Source of the DNA: a virus
Reading direction: 5' to 3' (one strand)
Length of the DNA: 13,007 bases
Virus genome (UHGV): UHGV-0203085
The translations under genes and the position numbers were made by a program. Below are positions 828-5,180 of the stretch, one piece after another (the first letter of the stretch is position 1; every line of letters starts with the position of its first letter). A model generated the notes under the pieces. The model had not been told where the DNA came from, did no database searches, and was given only the letters and a program-made list of their open reading frames with translations.

Positions 828-1024
828 AACTCAACCCCCAGAACTTCACATTCACTGCGTCTAATGAATAGCGGTCCGTCATCAGTTTCGACTATAAACC
901 CATACCCATGCACTTCTACAACCTCAAACTCGTCCCCGACGGCCACGCCGAAATGGTAGAGCGGGTGGTCATCATAGGGCGCTGGTTGAAAACTGTTTAC
1001 CTATGTTATTCGGATCCTCATAAC

Positions 1025-1228
1025 TCATCTCCTACGTCTAACATTGTGCCCAGGGGCATAACACCGTGTTCTGTCTTTGCTTATCGACCAACCGTCAGAC
1101 CTTGCTTGCCTCGCACACTCAGACCACGTCTCCCCGGTATACTCCCCCGAACACGGCATACGCCATTGTTTTGAATTACACTCATCGCAATCACAATAGA
1201 GATGTACAGCATATCCCGCGGCTACCAT
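1025..1228 (-). CDS. hypothetical Cys-rich small protein (possible zinc-binding), 67 aa
   Basis: ATG 1226-1228 (minus) with GGGGG 5 nt upstream; cysteine cluster CDCDEC, PC, and C-x-APGH suggests a metal-binding ribbon. Confidence 0.45.
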   Translation of the reverse strand: MVAAGYAVHLYCDCDECNSKQWRMPCSGEYTGETWSECARQARSDGWSISKDRTRCYAPGHNVRRRR

Positions 1229-1288
1229 ACTAACCCCCGCAACGCGTGCACCACATAAACGGCGCTGACAATTAAAATGAACGGGTAA

Positions 1289-1492
1289 TTATCCACGGCA
1301 ACCTCCCTCAGAGTCGTCGGCACGAGCATCGTGGTTCGATGCCGTTCGTATGGAGCGCAGGAGTTTAACCAGCATCTCCGGTGATGATGTTGAAATTTCT
1401 TCACCATCAAGTGTGACAATCGCATATCGTTTAATTGTGAAATTAACTTTTATTAATCTATGATGTTTAAGTTCTTCAAATAATTCTTCCAT
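1289..1492 (-). CDS. hypothetical protein, about 67 aa
   Basis: ATG 1490-1492 (minus) with GGGG about 8 nt upstream; overlaps the TGA stop of the upstream gene (TGATG junction); the track ORF starts one codon earlier at GTG 1495. Confidence 0.4.
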   Translation of the reverse strand: MEELFEELKHHRLIKVNFTIKRYAIVTLDGEEISTSSPEMLVKLLRSIRTASNHDARADDSEGGCRG

Positions 1493-1689
1493 CACTTCGC
1501 CCCTTTGAATTTAAAATTGTTGCCGATGAGTTCTAAATATTCTGCGCTTACAGTTGCATGTCCACCAGTAAATACATTGCGAAGTTTACAAATAGAGGAA
1601 CTGCCTCTGTTGTTGGTGGAAAATACGGAGTACAAACATCCCGACTTTTTACTACGGACCAACTGACCCTTCTTAAACATAACCTTCAT
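1492..1689 (-). CDS. hypothetical small protein, 65 aa
   Basis: ATG 1687-1689 (minus), second in-frame ATG 9 nt downstream; first gene after promoter-like element D; N-terminal FKKGQLVRSKKSG resembles small KOW/DUF2158-like phage proteins (weak, from memory). Confidence 0.5.
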   Translation of the reverse strand: MKVMFKKGQLVRSKKSGCLYSVFSTNNRGSSSICKLRNVFTGGHATVSAEYLELIGNNFKFKGAK

Positions 1690-1707
1690 TCCTATGTCAC
1701 GTTTCGA

Positions 1708-1744
1708 TAAGTGAATAGTAACCTATTATGTTGGGGGCGTGCAA
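1708..1744 (-). promoter_or_regulatory. promoter-like element D (minus orientation): TTGCAC, 18 nt, TACTAT, then conserved TTCACTTA
   Basis: Minus-strand reading cTTGCACgcccccaacataataggtTACTATtcactta. It has 3 mismatches to the 28-bp core shared by elements A and B, and its downstream 21 bp (cgtttcgataagtgaatagta, plus 1700-1720) matches the window-end copy C with one mismatch. It lies about 20-50 nt upstream of the ATG at 1689. Confidence 0.4.
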
Positions 1745-2039
1745 GAGAATAGTTACGATGCCGTTGTGATTCTTTCGTTTAATGGGGTAGCGAGCGAAAC
1801 GAAACGAACGTGGTGCCGAAGGCACCAAGAGTGAGTGAGTGAGCTTGCGGTTCTAACCTGCGGCAAATCAGTAACTTAGATATTTTGGCGGGAATTACAA
1901 TAGACTTTGGGCCTCCCAAACGCGCCAGCGAGCCTCACTCCACACGCTACACGTGCTCGTTTCGCCTGCCGCGCGCCGCGGTCGCTTGTTCATACTTCAC
2001 AAGCTCAGGTGGAGCTTAGCATATTTTTAGTGAAAAGTC

Positions 2040-2055
2040 AACTATTCGAATAGTT
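2040..2055. promoter_or_regulatory. perfect 16-bp palindrome AACTATTCGAATAGTT (putative operator)
   Basis: Exact inverted repeat in the divergent region between elements D and A. Its half-site ACTATTC is the same heptamer found at the -10 region of elements A, B, C and D, and GAATAGTT recurs at 1747-1754. Confidence 0.4.
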
Positions 2056-2107
2056 TATTCCAACATTTACAATTGAGCGGAATAACTGGAATACGTAAAC
2101 AAATAGT

Positions 2108-2143
2108 TTGCACACCCCAATATAATAGGGTACTATTCAGTTA
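2108..2143 (+). promoter_or_regulatory. promoter-like element A: TTGCAC, 17 nt, TACTAT, then conserved TCAGTTA
   Basis: The 28-bp core ccaatataatagggtactattcagttaa is identical to element B. -35-like TTGCAC at 2108-2113, -10-like TACTAT at 2131-2136; an embedded TATAAT lies in the spacer. It is followed by AGGAGG and the ATG at 2162. Confidence 0.45.
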
Positions 2144-2161
2144 ACTTAAACAGGAGGGTGT

Positions 2162-2407
2162 ATGCAGGAGTTACCTAGTTTCGAACGTGAGTTCATTAGC
2201 GGTTTCATACCGGTTACTAATTTCAGTATACAGGATTTATTTGACTTAAGAGAAAACGGCAGACTTTGGGTGTGCAATGCCAAGGATGTTTCAAACGCTA
2301 GAGTATGGAACTTTAGTTTAATGCGCCGCCCGAACAAATCTGGTGAAGGTGCTGTTGGCATGGATTTGTTGCGGCGCAAAGGTAAGCTATTCATGAGAGT
2401 GCAGTAA
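2162..2407 (+). CDS. hypothetical protein, 81 aa (moron-like cassette A)
   Basis: ATG 2162 with AGGAGG 6 nt upstream; own promoter-like element upstream and an intrinsic terminator immediately downstream; opposite in orientation to the flanking minus-strand genes. Confidence 0.6.
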   Translation: MQELPSFEREFISGFIPVTNFSIQDLFDLRENGRLWVCNAKDVSNARVWNFSLMRRPNKSGEGAVGMDLLRRKGKLFMRVQ

Positions 2408-2435: not shown

Positions 2436-2897
2436 TCATTCTGGCTTCGTAACCTTCGCCGCTCTACTTACCACCTCTACACCATCGGCATCAGTAACTT
2501 TAACGAAGTATTCACCGACAGCATTAACCGTCAGAGAAAGAGTCTCTTCCGGGGCATTTACTACTTCCTTTCCGTCCTTGTACCAGGTCAGCACATACGG
2601 TGCTTTGCCTGCCTTAGCCTCGACAGTGATGATTGCGCTGCCGTCTGCCAGTTCCGTGTCTTTCGGTTGCACGGAGAAATACACGTCGCCCGCGTCCGCC
2701 AGATACGGAATTTCATAAAGCATACCCGCCGCCGGTAGTGCAATACCAGTTTTATCCGCAAACGGCATATCGTCTACTGGTGTACCGAGTACACTTTCAT
2801 CTTCAATAAATACCACATTCTCGCCGGAGCCAGACACGCGGGCGTACTGGACTACGCGACGCGACGGCACATCAGTTACTTTGAAAAATCCCATCAT
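2436..2897 (-). CDS. Ig-like (BIG-type) domain protein, 153 aa, probable virion-associated or decoration protein
   Basis: ATG 2895-2897 overlaps the TAA of the upstream head morphogenesis gene (TAATG coupling). C-terminal YVLTWYKDGKEVVNA...TLSLTVNAVGEYFVKVTDADG has the alternating pattern of an Ig-like beta sandwich. Confidence 0.6.
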   Translation of the reverse strand: MMGFFKVTDVPSRRVVQYARVSGSGENVVFIEDESVLGTPVDDMPFADKTGIALPAAGMLYEIPYLADAGDVYFSVQPKDTELADGSAIITVEAKAGKAPYVLTWYKDGKEVVNAPEETLSLTVNAVGEYFVKVTDADGVEVVSRAAKVTKPE

Positions 2898-4756
2898 TAT
2901 TCCCCTTTCAGATAATCAGCAACACGTTTATCGAGTTCCGCCATCTGCTTAAGTGTCAGCGGATTCCCGAAACCATCTACAGATATTACGCGAAACTCTT
3001 CCGGCGATATACCGCTGTTACGGAAAATCTTACCTCGCACCGGGCCGAGTGCTTCATCCACGAACCATGCCGGTTGTTGTTCAAGGAACTCGTAGTAAGT
3101 GGTGTCCGCGCTTACCTGAGTACCGCCGTCCGCACCCTTAGCTGCGCGTTTCGCTCCTTTATCGAGGAAGTCGAACTCTGAACTGATCACAGGCGCGGTT
3201 GTTGAGCGGCAGTTATGTGCTATAATTCCATTAGCAAGATACCAGTTCTGTTCATTTTCGAGGTTATAAACATGCCCGCAAAAATCAGCTTCACTAAAGA
3301 CCAAATCGACAACATCATCAAGCTCTACACCGACGGCATCGGACCAGTTGAAATCGGAAAGATTATCGGCGTTTCGTGTAGTCCAGTCATACGCGTTCTC
3401 AGAGAGAACGGCGTTACCATTCGCGGAGGCAGCGACGCTATGTTCATCCGAATGGCTAAAGCTACTCCCGAGGAGCGCCTCGCTCTCTCCGCCGCGGCGC
3501 ATGAAGCTGTCCGAGGGAGAAAGGCCGACCATGCTGAACTGCTTCGCAGAGCCAAAGCCAGGGAGGGAGTCATCAACGCCGGCAGTCACTGGGAGTTCCT
3601 TGTCAATGATTTGCTTATTCAGTCCGGACTTGACTTTATCCCAGGAAAGGCGGTCGACAAGTACAATCTCGACTTCGCCGTCGGTACCGTCGCCGTGGAA
3701 GTCTTCGGGGGAGGTTGGGCTTGTACTGACCGCCGCCGGATTGACCGTTACATTAGCCGCACTAAACAAATCGGAGAACTTGGCTACAACGTTGTGTTCC
3801 TTATGCTTGAGAGAGAGCGCAGAGTCCTTAGCGCACACGAGCTTGTCACCTACATTGAGAAGGCCGGAAGCAACCCAACCACTGGCGGTCAATACCTGGT
3901 GGTTTGGGGTGATAGACAAGGTGCGACCGGACTTTGTAGAGACATAGACTATAGTGCCTTTGTACGCCCGTTTAAAAATGTTAGAAACAGGGCTACCGGT
4001 AGATACTACAGTGTCCCCAAGTAAACAATTAGGGTGGGCCGGAGGCATCGGCCCTTTACCAATTTCCCACGTCATCCCGTCCCTGGCTCTGCAAATCGTA
4101 CTGGTACGACTATCAAGCGTTGACACCCACTCGTATTTCTCGATGATGTCGTCGTTCTGGCGGTACGTCTCGTTGCGGGCCTCGTTGGATACGTGAGCCA
4201 GCGCGGTGCGGATTACGGTAGCTGCATTACGTTCAGAGATGTCCGCCAGTCCACCAGCGCCTACGACATTCTTAACAATCTGCCGTGTCGTCTGGCCTTG
4301 GACAAAGCCCATCTTAACGCCGGTTACCAGGCGCGATACTTCTGTTTCACCCCAGCCCGACATCAGCTTAGTGAAGTCAACCGGCTTGTCGCTTAATGAT
4401 AAGGGTTGAAACTCGGCAGCGGCCCATACCTGTTCCGCGGTAGGCGTAATAAACTCGGCGTTAACGTTGGTGGCCAGCGTTTTTACGTTCCACTCTGCCT
4501 CATAAGCCGCCAGTTCTTTAAGGTCTTCTGTCAGTTTTGTTTGCCAGTCACCCGTAAGTCCCGCCAGTGCTTCTTCGAGGTCGCGTAACAGCTTATTTAG
4601 CCGCGCGGTACTACGACCGTCGTCGCCGAATAACAGCACCTGCCGTTTGATTTCGTCCCGCATCTCCTTAAGGAACGGCGCGAGGTCTTTCACTTCACCG
4701 GATGCGGTGCGTTGCAGCCATATCTGGTGGCTGATTAGAGATGTAAGTAAGCTCAT
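2897..4756 (-). CDS. head morphogenesis protein (Phage Mu F / SPP1 gp7-like) interrupted by an intein
   Basis: Long minus ORF; best start is ATG 4754-4756 with AGGAGGG 3-4 nt upstream (track ORF begins at TTG 4813 with no RBS). The N-extein ends ...WVSTLDSRTSTICRARDGMTWEIGKGPMPPAHPN, which I recall as the Mu F signature preceding HPNCRC. The gene lies directly downstream of the portal gene, as expected by synteny. Confidence 0.8.
   Translation of the reverse strand: MSLLTSLISHQIWLQRTASGEVKDLAPFLKEMRDEIKRQVLLFGDDGRSTARLNKLLRDLEEALAGLTGDWQTKLTEDLKELAAYEAEWNVKTLATNVNAEFITPTAEQVWAAAEFQPLSLSDKPVDFTKLMSGWGETEVSRLVTGVKMGFVQGQTTRQIVKNVVGAGGLADISERNAATVIRTALAHVSNEARNETYRQNDDIIEKYEWVSTLDSRTSTICRARDGMTWEIGKGPMPPAHPNCLLGDTVVSTGSPVSNIFKRAYKGTIVYVSTKSGRTLSITPNHQVLTASGWVASGLLNVGDKLVCAKDSALSLKHKEHNVVAKFSDLFSAANVTVNPAAVSTSPTSPEDFHGDGTDGEVEIVLVDRLSWDKVKSGLNKQIIDKELPVTAGVDDSLPGFGSAKQFSMVGLSPSDSFMRRGGESEALLGSSFSHSDEHSVAASANGNAVLSENAYDWTTRNADNLSDFNWSDAVGVELDDVVDLVFSEADFCGHVYNLENEQNWYLANGIIAHNCRSTTAPVISSEFDFLDKGAKRAAKGADGGTQVSADTTYYEFLEQQPAWFVDEALGPVRGKIFRNSGISPEEFRVISVDGFGNPLTLKQMAELDKRVADYLKGE
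3212..4027 (-). mobile_element. intein, 272 codons (Cys1 ... His-Asn, +1 Cys)
   Basis: In-frame insertion beginning CLLGDTVVS (block A; Cys codon = plus 4025-4027), with TLSITPNHQVLT (block B, T-x-x-H) and GWVASGLLNVGDKLV in the N-terminal Hint part. The C-terminal Hint part is ADFCGHVYNLENEQNWYLANGIIAHN, followed by +1 Cys (plus 3209-3211). The central region is S/A/D/G-rich with no LAGLIDADG, HNH or GIY-YIG motifs. Confidence 0.75.
3272..4024 (+). CDS. antisense-nested ORF, 250 aa: HTH plus DUF559/Vsr-like (PD-(D/E)xK-type) putative homing endonuclease
   Basis: ATG 3272 with GAGG about 8 nt upstream (an in-frame ATG at 3215 gives the 269-aa track ORF). N-terminal HTH-like IGPVEIGKIIGVSCSPVIRVLRENGV. 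Central block WEFLVNDLLIQSGLDF...YNLDFAVGTVAVEVFGGGW...RRRIDRYISRTKQIGELGYNVVFL matches the DUF559/Vsr pattern (D-F ... hEhDG.W ... R ... GY.V) as I remember it. The ORF is bounded by antisense stops at 3203-3205 and 4022-4024, so it spans the intein to within 2 codons. Confidence 0.55.
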   Translation: MPAKISFTKDQIDNIIKLYTDGIGPVEIGKIIGVSCSPVIRVLRENGVTIRGGSDAMFIRMAKATPEERLALSAAAHEAVRGRKADHAELLRRAKAREGVINAGSHWEFLVNDLLIQSGLDFIPGKAVDKYNLDFAVGTVAVEVFGGGWACTDRRRIDRYISRTKQIGELGYNVVFLMLERERRVLSAHELVTYIEKAGSNPTTGGQYLVVWGDRQGATGLCRDIDYSAFVRPFKNVRNRATGRYYSVPK

Positions 4757-4800
4757 AAGCCCTCCTGTAGTATCGCCAGTGTAACGCATAAAAATAATAT

Positions 4801-4836
4801 TTGCAGACACCAATATAATAGGGTACTATTCAGTTA
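4801..4836 (+). promoter_or_regulatory. promoter-like element B: TTGCAG, 17 nt, TACTAT, then conserved TCAGTTA
   Basis: The 28-bp core (4809-4836) is identical to element A. It lies in the divergent intergenic region between the head morphogenesis start (4756, minus) and the + ORF at 4861. Confidence 0.45.
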
Positions 4837-4860: not shown

Positions 4861-5016
4861 ATGATTAATGCTAAAGAAGAGTTGCTCGCCCATCTGGATG
4901 GTAAAGATGTAGTTAAATGCGCCTGGTTTGCAGATTATGACGCAGATTACGGTTTCGTTAAGGGAGTAAATGGCTCCTGCGGGAGAATTACTCTCGCGGA
5001 GAATGGGAAAGCCTAA
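4861..5016 (+). CDS. hypothetical small protein, 51 aa (moron-like cassette B, first ORF; not in track)
   Basis: ATG 4861 with AGGAGG 8 nt upstream; translation MINAKEELLAHLDGKDVVKCAWFADYDADYGFVKGVNGSCGRITLAENGKA; TAA 5014-5016 overlaps the next ATG (TAATG). Confidence 0.45.
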   Translation: MINAKEELLAHLDGKDVVKCAWFADYDADYGFVKGVNGSCGRITLAENGKA

Positions 5017-5180
5017 TGGCTGCGCTTGATTTTGAATATCACAACGGTTACGGCGGTCAAAACTTCTTCGGCGTAATTTGGTACGAAGATGGTACATGGT
5101 CTTCTCGCGGAGAATACGATGGTTCTGAATGGTGGGAATATAATGCCGTGCCAGATGTGCCAGGAGAACTTAAGCGCTAA
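5016..5180 (+). CDS. hypothetical small Gly/aromatic-rich protein, 54 aa (moron-like cassette B, second ORF; not in track)
   Basis: ATG 5016-5018 coupled to the upstream stop; translation MAALDFEYHNGYGGQNFFGVIWYEDGTWSSRGEYDGSEWWEYNAVPDVPGELKR; TAA 5178-5180 followed 4 nt later by a terminator hairpin. Confidence 0.45.
   Translation: MAALDFEYHNGYGGQNFFGVIWYEDGTWSSRGEYDGSEWWEYNAVPDVPGELKR

Follow-up and report, generated by a model that had tools for sequence, protein, structure and literature searches.

A Vsr-like homing endonuclease gene predicted on the strand opposite an intein in a phage head-morphogenesis gene

How can an intein spread among phages if it carries no visible endonuclease? 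This question is raised by a locus in the virus genome UHGV-0203085, of which a stretch of 13,007 nucleotides (nt) is here called the window. On the minus strand of the window, a gene for a head-morphogenesis protein of the MuF/SPP1-gp7 type is interrupted by an intein, and the same element has been termed a "large intein" in the record and the genome announcement of phage Snoke (PMC6776784). Opposite the intein, the plus strand holds an open reading frame (ORF) of 250 codons. A preliminary description of the sequence had proposed a dual-coding mobile unit, with the Hint splicing domain on the minus strand and its endonuclease on the plus strand. This proposal was supported by a switch of the selected reading frame, the predicted protein fold, the architecture of the whole family and the existence of alleles with an empty insertion site, and all computational checks named in that description spoke for it. 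The element is very probably a composite mobile unit that uses both strands, a splicing intein on one and a gene for a Vsr-like homing endonuclease on the other.

Two reading frames across the MuF intein

The features of the locus on which this section relies are listed by position in the window.

3272..4024, plus strand: putative antisense homing endonuclease gene, 250 codons plus TAA, codon-aligned with the intein frame
2897..4756, minus strand: MuF/SPP1-gp7-type head (capsid) morphogenesis gene, beginning MSLL... at ATG 4754-4756, stop codon included
3212..4027, minus strand: class-1 intein of 272 codons (Cys1 ... His-Asn272, +1 Cys) in the MuF motif PPAHPN↓CRS (the arrow marks the insertion point)
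3818..4027, minus strand: Hint N-terminal splicing region, intein codons 1-70 (CLLGDTVV ... TPNHQVLT ... GD), modelled as beta-strands with a predicted local distance difference test score (pLDDT) of 51-84
3320..3817, minus strand: sense-strand interior of the intein, codons 71-236, recognised by its substitution pattern, low pLDDT and lack of a Pfam domain
3212..3319, minus strand: Hint C-terminal splicing region, codons 237-272 (DDVVDLV..GHVYNLE..WY..NGIIAHN), recognised by invariant residues, constraint on the sense frame and modelled strands

The open stretch of the plus strand spans 3206-4021 and is closed by TAA (4022-4024), which lies opposite the Leu2 codon (TTA) of the intein. On this strand, flanking stops in the same frame lie at 3203-3205, antisense of a Ser codon (TCA) of the C-extein, and at 4121-4123. 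Open stretch and intein share the same codon register with an offset of 6 nt, which confirmed the antisense frame first described as co-extensive with the intein. The codons TTA, CTA and TCA, said to be absent after Leu2 while present in the exteins, were counted once in the 272 codons of the intein (Leu2 only), against 9 in 243 codons of the N-extein and 2 in 104 of the C-extein. Based on the codon usage of the window itself, about 10 such codons would be expected in the intein. For the plus-strand ORF alone, about 5.1 antisense stops were expected and none was seen (P(0) = 0.004).

Stops scattered through the antisense frame of related inteins were looked for and not found. Among 83 related loci in which a plus-strand ORF could be recognised, 82 have it within a long open frame of the minus strand, always in the codon-aligned register, and across these relatives the open antisense frame is far beyond chance. 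By the genetic code, the codon-aligned register would be the only one whose antisense stops (TTA, CTA, TCA) are all synonymously avoidable. Every relative is presumably found in this register because only there can both frames be kept open by synonymous choice alone.

Selection was compared between the two frames with two sets of sequences. In a gap-free alignment of 12 Guernseyvirinae MuF genes, minimum substitutions were counted at sense codon positions 1, 2 and 3. The usual excess at position 3 was found in the exteins (137/75/380 in the N-extein and 29/16/149 in the C-extein) and in the Hint C-terminal region (5/1/14). Over intein codons 71-236 the pattern was inverted (126/23/50). Sense position 1 is antisense position 3 in codon-aligned genes, so the excess at position 1 in the interior is the third-position excess of the plus-strand gene. 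In the same alignment, the interior showed 151 amino-acid changes in the sense frame versus 64 in the antisense frame.

The wider test comprised 201 pairs from 76 distinct and far more divergent sequences. Over intein codons ~73-232, codon changes silent on the plus strand and nonsynonymous on the minus strand mostly exceeded the reverse class 3- to 14-fold, with one bin (codons 83-92) balanced between the frames. The ratio flipped to the sense frame in the Hint C-terminal region and at codons ~33-72, and both frames were equally conserved over codons ~3-32. Strict dual coding predicts slower change in the Hint N-terminal region than in the interior, which was not seen (~1.1 versus ~1.2 minimum substitutions per codon); dual constraint is suggested only by the balance between the frames at codons 3-32. 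The comparison by frame, which the preliminary description had named as a check, favoured the plus frame in the interior and the sense frame in the exteins and the Hint C-terminal region. In the intein interior, purifying selection acts on the plus frame, and the plus-strand ORF is a genuine gene. On the sense strand, the interior is a translated passenger linker without selection on its amino acids. A further plus-strand ORF of 199 codons with a TTG start (3348..3947) lies inside the intein in another frame than the selected one.

The minus-strand ORF surrounding these features (2897..4813) was assigned to the MuF/SPP1-gp7-type head-morphogenesis proteins by Pfam (Phage_Mu_F, E=1.9e-11) and PHROGs (phrog_241, E=1.6e-147). 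Its Guernseyvirinae homologs comprise 1860 nt, start at the equivalent of ATG 4756 and are annotated as head morphogenesis protein; the records of several relatives name the gene 'NAD+--asparagine ADP-ribosyltransferase'. The Hint N- and C-terminal parts expected on this strand were recovered with Pfam PF14890 (Intein_splicing), which matched the same product with 38.6 bits at a curated gathering cut-off of 35.8 and also recognised 9 out of 10 diverse relatives (E<=1e-4). The intein begins with Cys1 (codon 4025-4027, CLLGDTVV...), ends with ...NGIIAHN and is followed by Cys at position +1. The catalytic junction residues Cys1, TPNH of block B, the C-terminal His-Asn and the +1 Cys are all present. 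Residues T40, N42, H43, H271 and N272 are conserved in the intein alignment A2, and G251, H252, V253, Y254, N255, Y263, H271 and N272 are invariant in its Hint C-terminal region. That the protein splices is suggested by the need for MuF-type head proteins in viable, isolated phages.

The sense-strand intein was modelled with AlphaFold2 from 12 sequences. Its Hint parts were predicted as beta-strands (pLDDT about 50-84), and residues 69-226 were given a pLDDT below 50, about 25, with almost no secondary structure. A Pfam search of the MuF-intein protein and of 10 diverse relatives gave no LAGLIDADG, HNH or GIY-YIG domain, so the first impression of a sense interior without these motifs held. 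These data bear on the explanation that the antisense ORF is a chance or codon-usage by-product and that the sense interior is a real novel endonuclease or other functional domain. Long codon-aligned antisense ORFs do arise, and a 193-codon open run is present opposite another gene of the window. However, selection in the interior acts on the plus frame and not on the sense frame, the sense interior has a pLDDT of ~25 and no Pfam domain, and a known nuclease fold is predicted with confidence for the plus-strand protein, of which a free-standing homolog exists (see below). This explanation is effectively refuted.

Predicted product and candidate expression signals of the plus-strand gene

Three parts were distinguished in the 250-residue product.

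3293..3406, plus strand: helix-turn-helix (HTH) DNA-binding module, residues 8-45
3584..3811, plus strand: Vsr-like / PD-(D/E)xK nuclease core, residues ~105-180, with invariant Y131, N132, D134, V142 and E143
3890..4021, plus strand: C-terminal beta-rich tail, residues 207-250, opposite the Hint N-terminal region; AlphaFold2 strands with pLDDT 74-88

Structure prediction of the plus-strand protein with AlphaFold2, run on an alignment of 18 sequences, gave a mean pLDDT of 85.5. The family profile (alignment A1) matched Protein Data Bank (PDB) entry 3r3p_A, the endonuclease I-Bth0305I, at E=6.7e-6. Among the 18 family members, Pfam domains MTES_1575, HTH_7 and DUF559 were recognised in 8, 8 and 4 proteins, respectively. 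The HTH followed by a Vsr- or DUF559-like block, read from the translation in the preliminary description, was thus recovered, and the protein shows both the Vsr-like nuclease fold and the N-terminal HTH/NUMOD DNA-binding region of the EDxHD / Vsr-like family. A PHROGs search with the window protein alone gave a sub-threshold match to 'DNA binding protein'. Since single-sequence matches were below threshold, the protein was placed in the nuclease family by family alignment, PDB profile search and structure prediction. The window protein has one copy of the HTH module, and most relatives have two or three.

The active site of I-Bth0305I consists of D196, H213 and D222 together with a conserved Glu that takes the place of Phe62 in Vsr (Taylor et al. 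2011, PMC3239194; PDB 3R3P). Residues D134 and E143 of the plus-strand protein are invariant in A1 and align with D196 of I-Bth0305I and with the Glu at the Vsr Phe62 position. The C-terminal tail is shorter in the copies of Gordonia phage Vivi2 (L001) and of an RtcB gene (L100, see below). Although it is encoded opposite the Hint N-terminal region, the tail appears to belong to the endonuclease protein.

The start of the gene and its candidate expression signals coincide with the splicing motifs of blocks F and G.

3272..3274, plus strand: probable start codon ATG, reverse complement of the CAT codon of the block-F His (GHVYNLE)
3260..3263, plus strand: putative Shine-Dalgarno sequence GAGG, 8 nt before ATG 3272, reverse complement of the block-F Asn-Leu codons (AAC CTC)
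3218..3226, plus strand: candidate extended -10 promoter element TGCTATAAT, 45 nt upstream of the ATG, reverse complement of block-G Ile-Ile-Ala-His

These signals were counted over 66-67 distinct loci. At the position of the block-F His, ATG, GTG or TTG was found in 60 of 66 loci; the His codon is CAT in 55 and CAC in 4 cases at a CAT background of 39% (binomial p=2e-18, an approximate value as the sequences are related). A Shine-Dalgarno-like motif is present in 48 of 66 loci, and the block-F Leu codon is CTC in 35 of 50 loci versus a background of 22%. In a pattern search of both strands, TGNTATAAT was unique in the 13-kb window. Most loci have a TATAAT-like box at the same spacing of 45 nt, and the block-G Ile-Ile pair is ATT-ATA in 24 of 29 loci versus 5.9% expected. 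Judged by these counts, a strong synonymous-codon bias appears to hold start codon, ribosome-binding site and -10 box in place, and the -10 box may act as a promoter. Translation probably starts at ATG 3272: the first choice of this codon with its GAGG (3260-3263) stood. The alternative ATG 3215 is present in the sequence and was rejected, since it lies upstream of the -10 box and relatives keep their start at the block-F His position.

Insertion sites, mobility and the proposed bond between the strands

The two sides of the insertion site are as follows.

4028..4045, minus strand: N-extein side, putative homing target (PPAHPN); consensus CCnCCnGnnCATnnnAAn↓TGCCGn from 41 distinct loci
3194..3211, minus strand: C-extein side, putative homing target (CRSTTA); consensus from 41 distinct loci, contiguous across the junction in L091

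Mobility was assessed by comparison with related phages. Identity between the window and Jerseyvirus celemicas (L097) reaches 96.8% in the intein, compared with 69.5% in the N-extein and 79% in the C-extein. In bins of 60 nt, the values are 52-83% outside the intein and 93-100% inside it, and the change falls precisely on the two borders. A synthetic extein-extein junction matched 93 phage records, mostly of Kagunavirus, which hold the uninterrupted allele at 88-90% identity; the full insert was found in 58 records versus 93 with the empty site. The intein-less allele of the Kagunavirus L091 reads ...PPAHPNCRSTT... (nucleotides ...PPAHPNCRSTTAPV...), and the junction in, for example, K1H or vB_EcoS-22664BS2 reads ...CCGGCCCACCCTAAT↓TGCCGCTCAACA.... 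The authors of the Snoke paper noted the intein in LSPA1 and its lack in K1ind2 (PMC6776784). The comparison of phages with and without the insert, proposed at the outset, therefore gave both kinds, and an insert far more conserved than its flanks. The signature is that of recent horizontal spread; the steps in identity and the empty alleles form the classical footprint and point to recent homing with short co-conversion tracts.

A tblastn search with the plus-strand ORF matched 106 phage records. Identities were 75-98% in Jersey-like phages, 45% in Vibrio and 36-38% in Gordonia phages; matches at 23-31% included those in Mycobacterium, Klebsiella, Aaphi23/S1249, Edwardsiella, Idiomarinaceae and a Helicobacter prophage. 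In all eight non-Jersey matches examined, the match was antisense to a MuF-type gene. Relatives of the ORF are encoded by 532 stretches in IMG/VR, and the predicted-protein databases held only 18 matches to its product among 5.8 billion clusters. In essentially all of the ~100 GenBank phage records carrying it, the gene is missing or 'hypothetical', because standard gene callers report only the long MuF ORF. The antisense ORF is annotated, wholly or in part, as 'hypothetical protein' in Salmonella phage PK1 (L102, 844..1653, plus strand) and in vB_StyS-sam (L099, 1230..1631, plus strand). In L019 (~1000..2200), which is near-identical to L014, a single-base frameshift in the interior interrupts both reading frames, that of the endonuclease and that of the intein, at one position. 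The copy may be decaying or naturally 'fractured', or the shift may stem from a sequencing error.

The usual insertion site is the conserved MuF motif PPxHxN↓CR(S/C), and judged by sequence its flanks may be the target of the endonuclease. A palindromic target such as that of I-Bth0305I was looked for around the insertion site, where only AATT is palindromic, which is uninformative. In Mycobacterium phage Sejanus (L004, 740..4084, minus strand), intein and antisense gene occupy a second MuF site (..VVVHN↓CTIDGKTRPSH..). This site precedes the usual NCRC motif by ~50 residues, and that motif is itself intact. An intein of the same family (GHVYNLS..NGIIAHN↓C) was found in an RtcB RNA-ligase gene of a metagenomic contig (L100, 2498..3790, plus strand), and it carries a homologous antisense ORF of 221 residues with HTH and Vsr-like parts (L100, 2669..3334, minus strand). 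The unit of intein and antisense gene can therefore change its target or host protein. Gene calling split the RtcB gene of L100 into two ORFs that share 2498-2501; a frameshift or a faulty assembly could account for this.

In Acinetobacter phage P1068 (L006, 2306..3199, plus strand), an endonuclease homolog stands alone as an ordinary gene, and two further Acinetobacter phages have identical copies. It converges on an intein-less MuF gene of 261 codons, whose 3' end it overlaps by a few bases. This MuF gene ends with ...PMCKCRAKL..., so the free-standing gene is located ~50 nt from the intein insertion motif. The P1068 protein aligns end to end with the Aaphi23 antisense ORF, including the C-terminal tail (32% identity, E=2e-42); the endonuclease family therefore also exists apart from inteins. 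Remnants of a Hint domain were sought opposite the P1068 gene, and the three antisense frames were full of stops and showed no convincing Hint motifs. The 5' leader of the P1068 gene (..LHERMHM..) resembles the antisense of block F, which hints at an escape from an intein.

Given such homologs, endonuclease gene and intein might be two independent selfish elements and not a co-adapted single unit. The free-standing gene beside an intein-less MuF gene in three Acinetobacter phages fits this explanation, as do the free-standing Vsr-like genes known between split-intein halves (PMC2677866). Yet the codons of Hint blocks F and G supply the start codon, ribosome-binding site and -10 box of the gene, which codon bias appears to preserve, and the plus-strand ORF reaches across the Hint N-terminal region. 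Moreover, the combination has been kept at 23-45% protein identity across phyla, which argues for long co-evolution as a unit. Independence of the two is therefore considered very unlikely.

Several points weigh against the view that the plus-strand gene is the homing endonuclease gene of a composite unit. In Pfam searches, the window protein alone gave sub-threshold matches (HTH_7, E=0.015; MTES_1575, E=0.13). Ala150 (GGGW-A-CTD, 3719..3721) stands where the alignment places the general-base His of I-Bth0305I (H213) and Vsr. This position is Ala or Ser throughout the clade of the window and His only in the P0013-P0017 clade. An equivalent of D222 of I-Bth0305I was not evident, as the profile alignment sets D222 opposite the Tyr of RYI. 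The protein folds like an EDxHD/Vsr enzyme yet fails one defining motif position, and the catalytic mechanism, and even the activity, of the predicted endonuclease are uncertain. A scan for two-hexamer consensus promoters gave nothing upstream of the plus-strand ORF, the -10 box being missed because of the lack of a good -35, and no terminator for the ORF was found in the scan. The p-values for codon bias (1e-12 to 3e-25) ignore the relatedness of the sequences, a problem tempered by the expectation that synonymous sites should be saturated at 30-40% protein identity. Transcription, translation, cleavage specificity and splicing are predicted properties of the element.

Residues D153 and D158, near the D222-aligned position, are conserved only within the clade of the window. 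A conserved (S/T)D is located three residues after the Ala150 position and might substitute for the general-base His.

The altered active site fits the alternative that the plus-strand protein is real and conserved, but is not, or is no longer, the homing nuclease of the intein, which would then have spread by ordinary recombination. In this case the protein could serve as a maturase-like helper, or in DNA-binding or nicking for regulation or for the exclusion of competing phages. Apart from the general-base His being Ala150 in the window clade, it may be argued that several antisense VSR-like inteins look vertically inherited (bioRxiv 10.1101/2025.01.02.630785). On the other hand, the metal-binding Asp (D134) and the family-specific Glu (E143) are invariant, and the intein is ~97% identical across exteins of ~70-80% identity, with sharp borders. 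Phages of several phyla carry the element at one conserved site, and RtcB carries it too, a pattern that is the signature of site-specific homing. This alternative is regarded as improbable, and the activity of the predicted endonuclease receives indirect support from purifying selection and the homing footprint.

For the composite unit, the following course of events is proposed. The MuF precursor would be translated straight through the 272-residue intein on the minus strand, and the Hint N-terminal (~70 residues) and C-terminal (~36 residues) parts would fold and splice. The ~160 residues between them, predicted as disordered, are the codon-aligned reverse-complement reading of the plus-strand gene. 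The latter (3272-4024) would yield a 250-residue protein with an HTH and a Vsr-like nuclease of the I-Bth0305I ('EDxHD') kind. It may be expressed independently of the late structural operon, because start codon, ribosome-binding site and probable -10 box lie in the antisense of blocks F and G. In a mixed infection, the enzyme would cut an intein-less MuF allele at or near the site coding for PPxHxN↓CR(S/C), and recombinational repair would copy intein and endonuclease gene into the cut allele; both steps follow the known behaviour of the family.

More tentatively, and with somewhat less than even confidence, we propose that the two strands are obligately interlocked. Blocks F and G would double as start codon, ribosome-binding site and promoter, and the first ~30 codons of the intein and the last ~30 of the endonuclease gene would be dual-coding, each strand specifying part of a folded protein. 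A codon-aligned inversion would have turned a free-standing Vsr-like gene by the 3' end of a MuF gene, as in P1068, into part of a contiguous intein, an alternative to the 'fractured' genes described below. If this is true, the family would be the most widespread case of natural long antiparallel dual coding in bacteriophages (hundreds of viral contigs, several bacterial phyla), and a tractable Escherichia coli/Salmonella system for the study of how inteins acquire endonucleases.

An antisense endonuclease gene would explain how a 'large intein' without visible endonuclease spread between Jersey-like and K1-like phages, and why recombination breakpoints lie exactly at the intein borders. A single inverted, codon-aligned register would allow a whole gene to be carried within a translated element, its signals being written in reverse-complemented splicing motifs. 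The locus also offers a concrete model of how mobile inteins could have arisen ('splicing domain first, endonuclease later') and how they relate to split inteins. The natural intein-free sister alleles in E. coli and Salmonella phages make homing and strand-specific expression directly testable.

Two small plus-strand ORFs (51 and 54 residues) are located at 4861..5180 between the minus-strand MuF and portal genes of the window. In the intein-less relative L091, a plus-strand hypothetical gene is annotated in the same gap between the MuF and portal genes.

Comparison with known systems

No description of an antisense endonuclease gene in inteins was known to the preliminary description, but the arrangement has been described. 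Actinophage minor capsid inteins with anti-sense VSR-like homing endonucleases and an HHpred match to 3R3P have been reported by Gosselin, Arsenault and Gogarten (bioRxiv 10.1101/2025.01.02.630785). The same preprint describes contiguous actinophage inteins with an antisense endonuclease of either the LAGLIDADG or the VSR-like type. The window element shares with them the MuF/minor capsid host protein, the contiguous intein, an unstructured in-frame middle and the antisense Vsr-like gene matching 3R3P. It likewise has the antisense Vsr-like ORF in the middle of the intein and no structured in-frame domain. The MuF intein of Gordonia phage Vivi2 carries a direct homolog of the plus-strand ORF of the window (36% identity, E=2e-26), and the antisense ORFs in MuF inteins of Mycobacterium phages are direct homologs as well. 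The window element differs in its hosts, which are Guernseyvirinae siphophages of E. coli and Salmonella, and in its single HTH module instead of several. Codon register, selection by frame, promoters and start-codon placement are not mentioned in the preprint (bioRxiv 10.1101/2025.01.02.630785).

The preprint gives Gorbalenya 1998 and Gogarten 2002 credit for antisense LAGLIDADG inteins (bioRxiv 10.1101/2025.01.02.630785). As far as they are outlined there, the inteins of Synechocystis DnaX and of a Chloroflexus SpoVR-like protein also have an endonuclease opposite a contiguous intein, and they differ in the nuclease family, which is LAGLIDADG there and Vsr-like here.

In 'fractured' genes, a Vsr-like endonuclease gene lies between the halves of a split intein, and one strand encodes all three ORFs (Dassa et al. 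2009, PMC2677866); Vsr-like domains were stated there as not known in inteins. These genes and the window element have in common the nuclease superfamily, the insertion point (between the N-terminal blocks and block F) and the phage or metagenomic context. The fractured arrangement is same-strand, split and trans-splicing, whereas the gene in the window is inverted and codon-aligned, and its intein is contiguous and can splice in cis.

I-Bth0305I, the EDxHD prototype, shares with the plus-strand protein the N-terminal HTH/NUMOD-type region, the C-terminal Vsr-like catalytic domain and the equivalents of D196 and Glu. In contrast, it is encoded on the sense strand in a group I intron, its H213 corresponds to Ala150 in the window, and the two proteins are only 17% identical. 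Antisense endonuclease genes in nuclear group I introns (PMC9548176) are also carried on the opposite strand of a self-splicing element. These introns, however, are removed as RNA and impose no constraint on a sense frame, whereas the sense frame of the intein must stay open and be translated. The arrangement as such has been described before, and the element in the window is a new, enterobacterial (Guernseyvirinae) member of this class.

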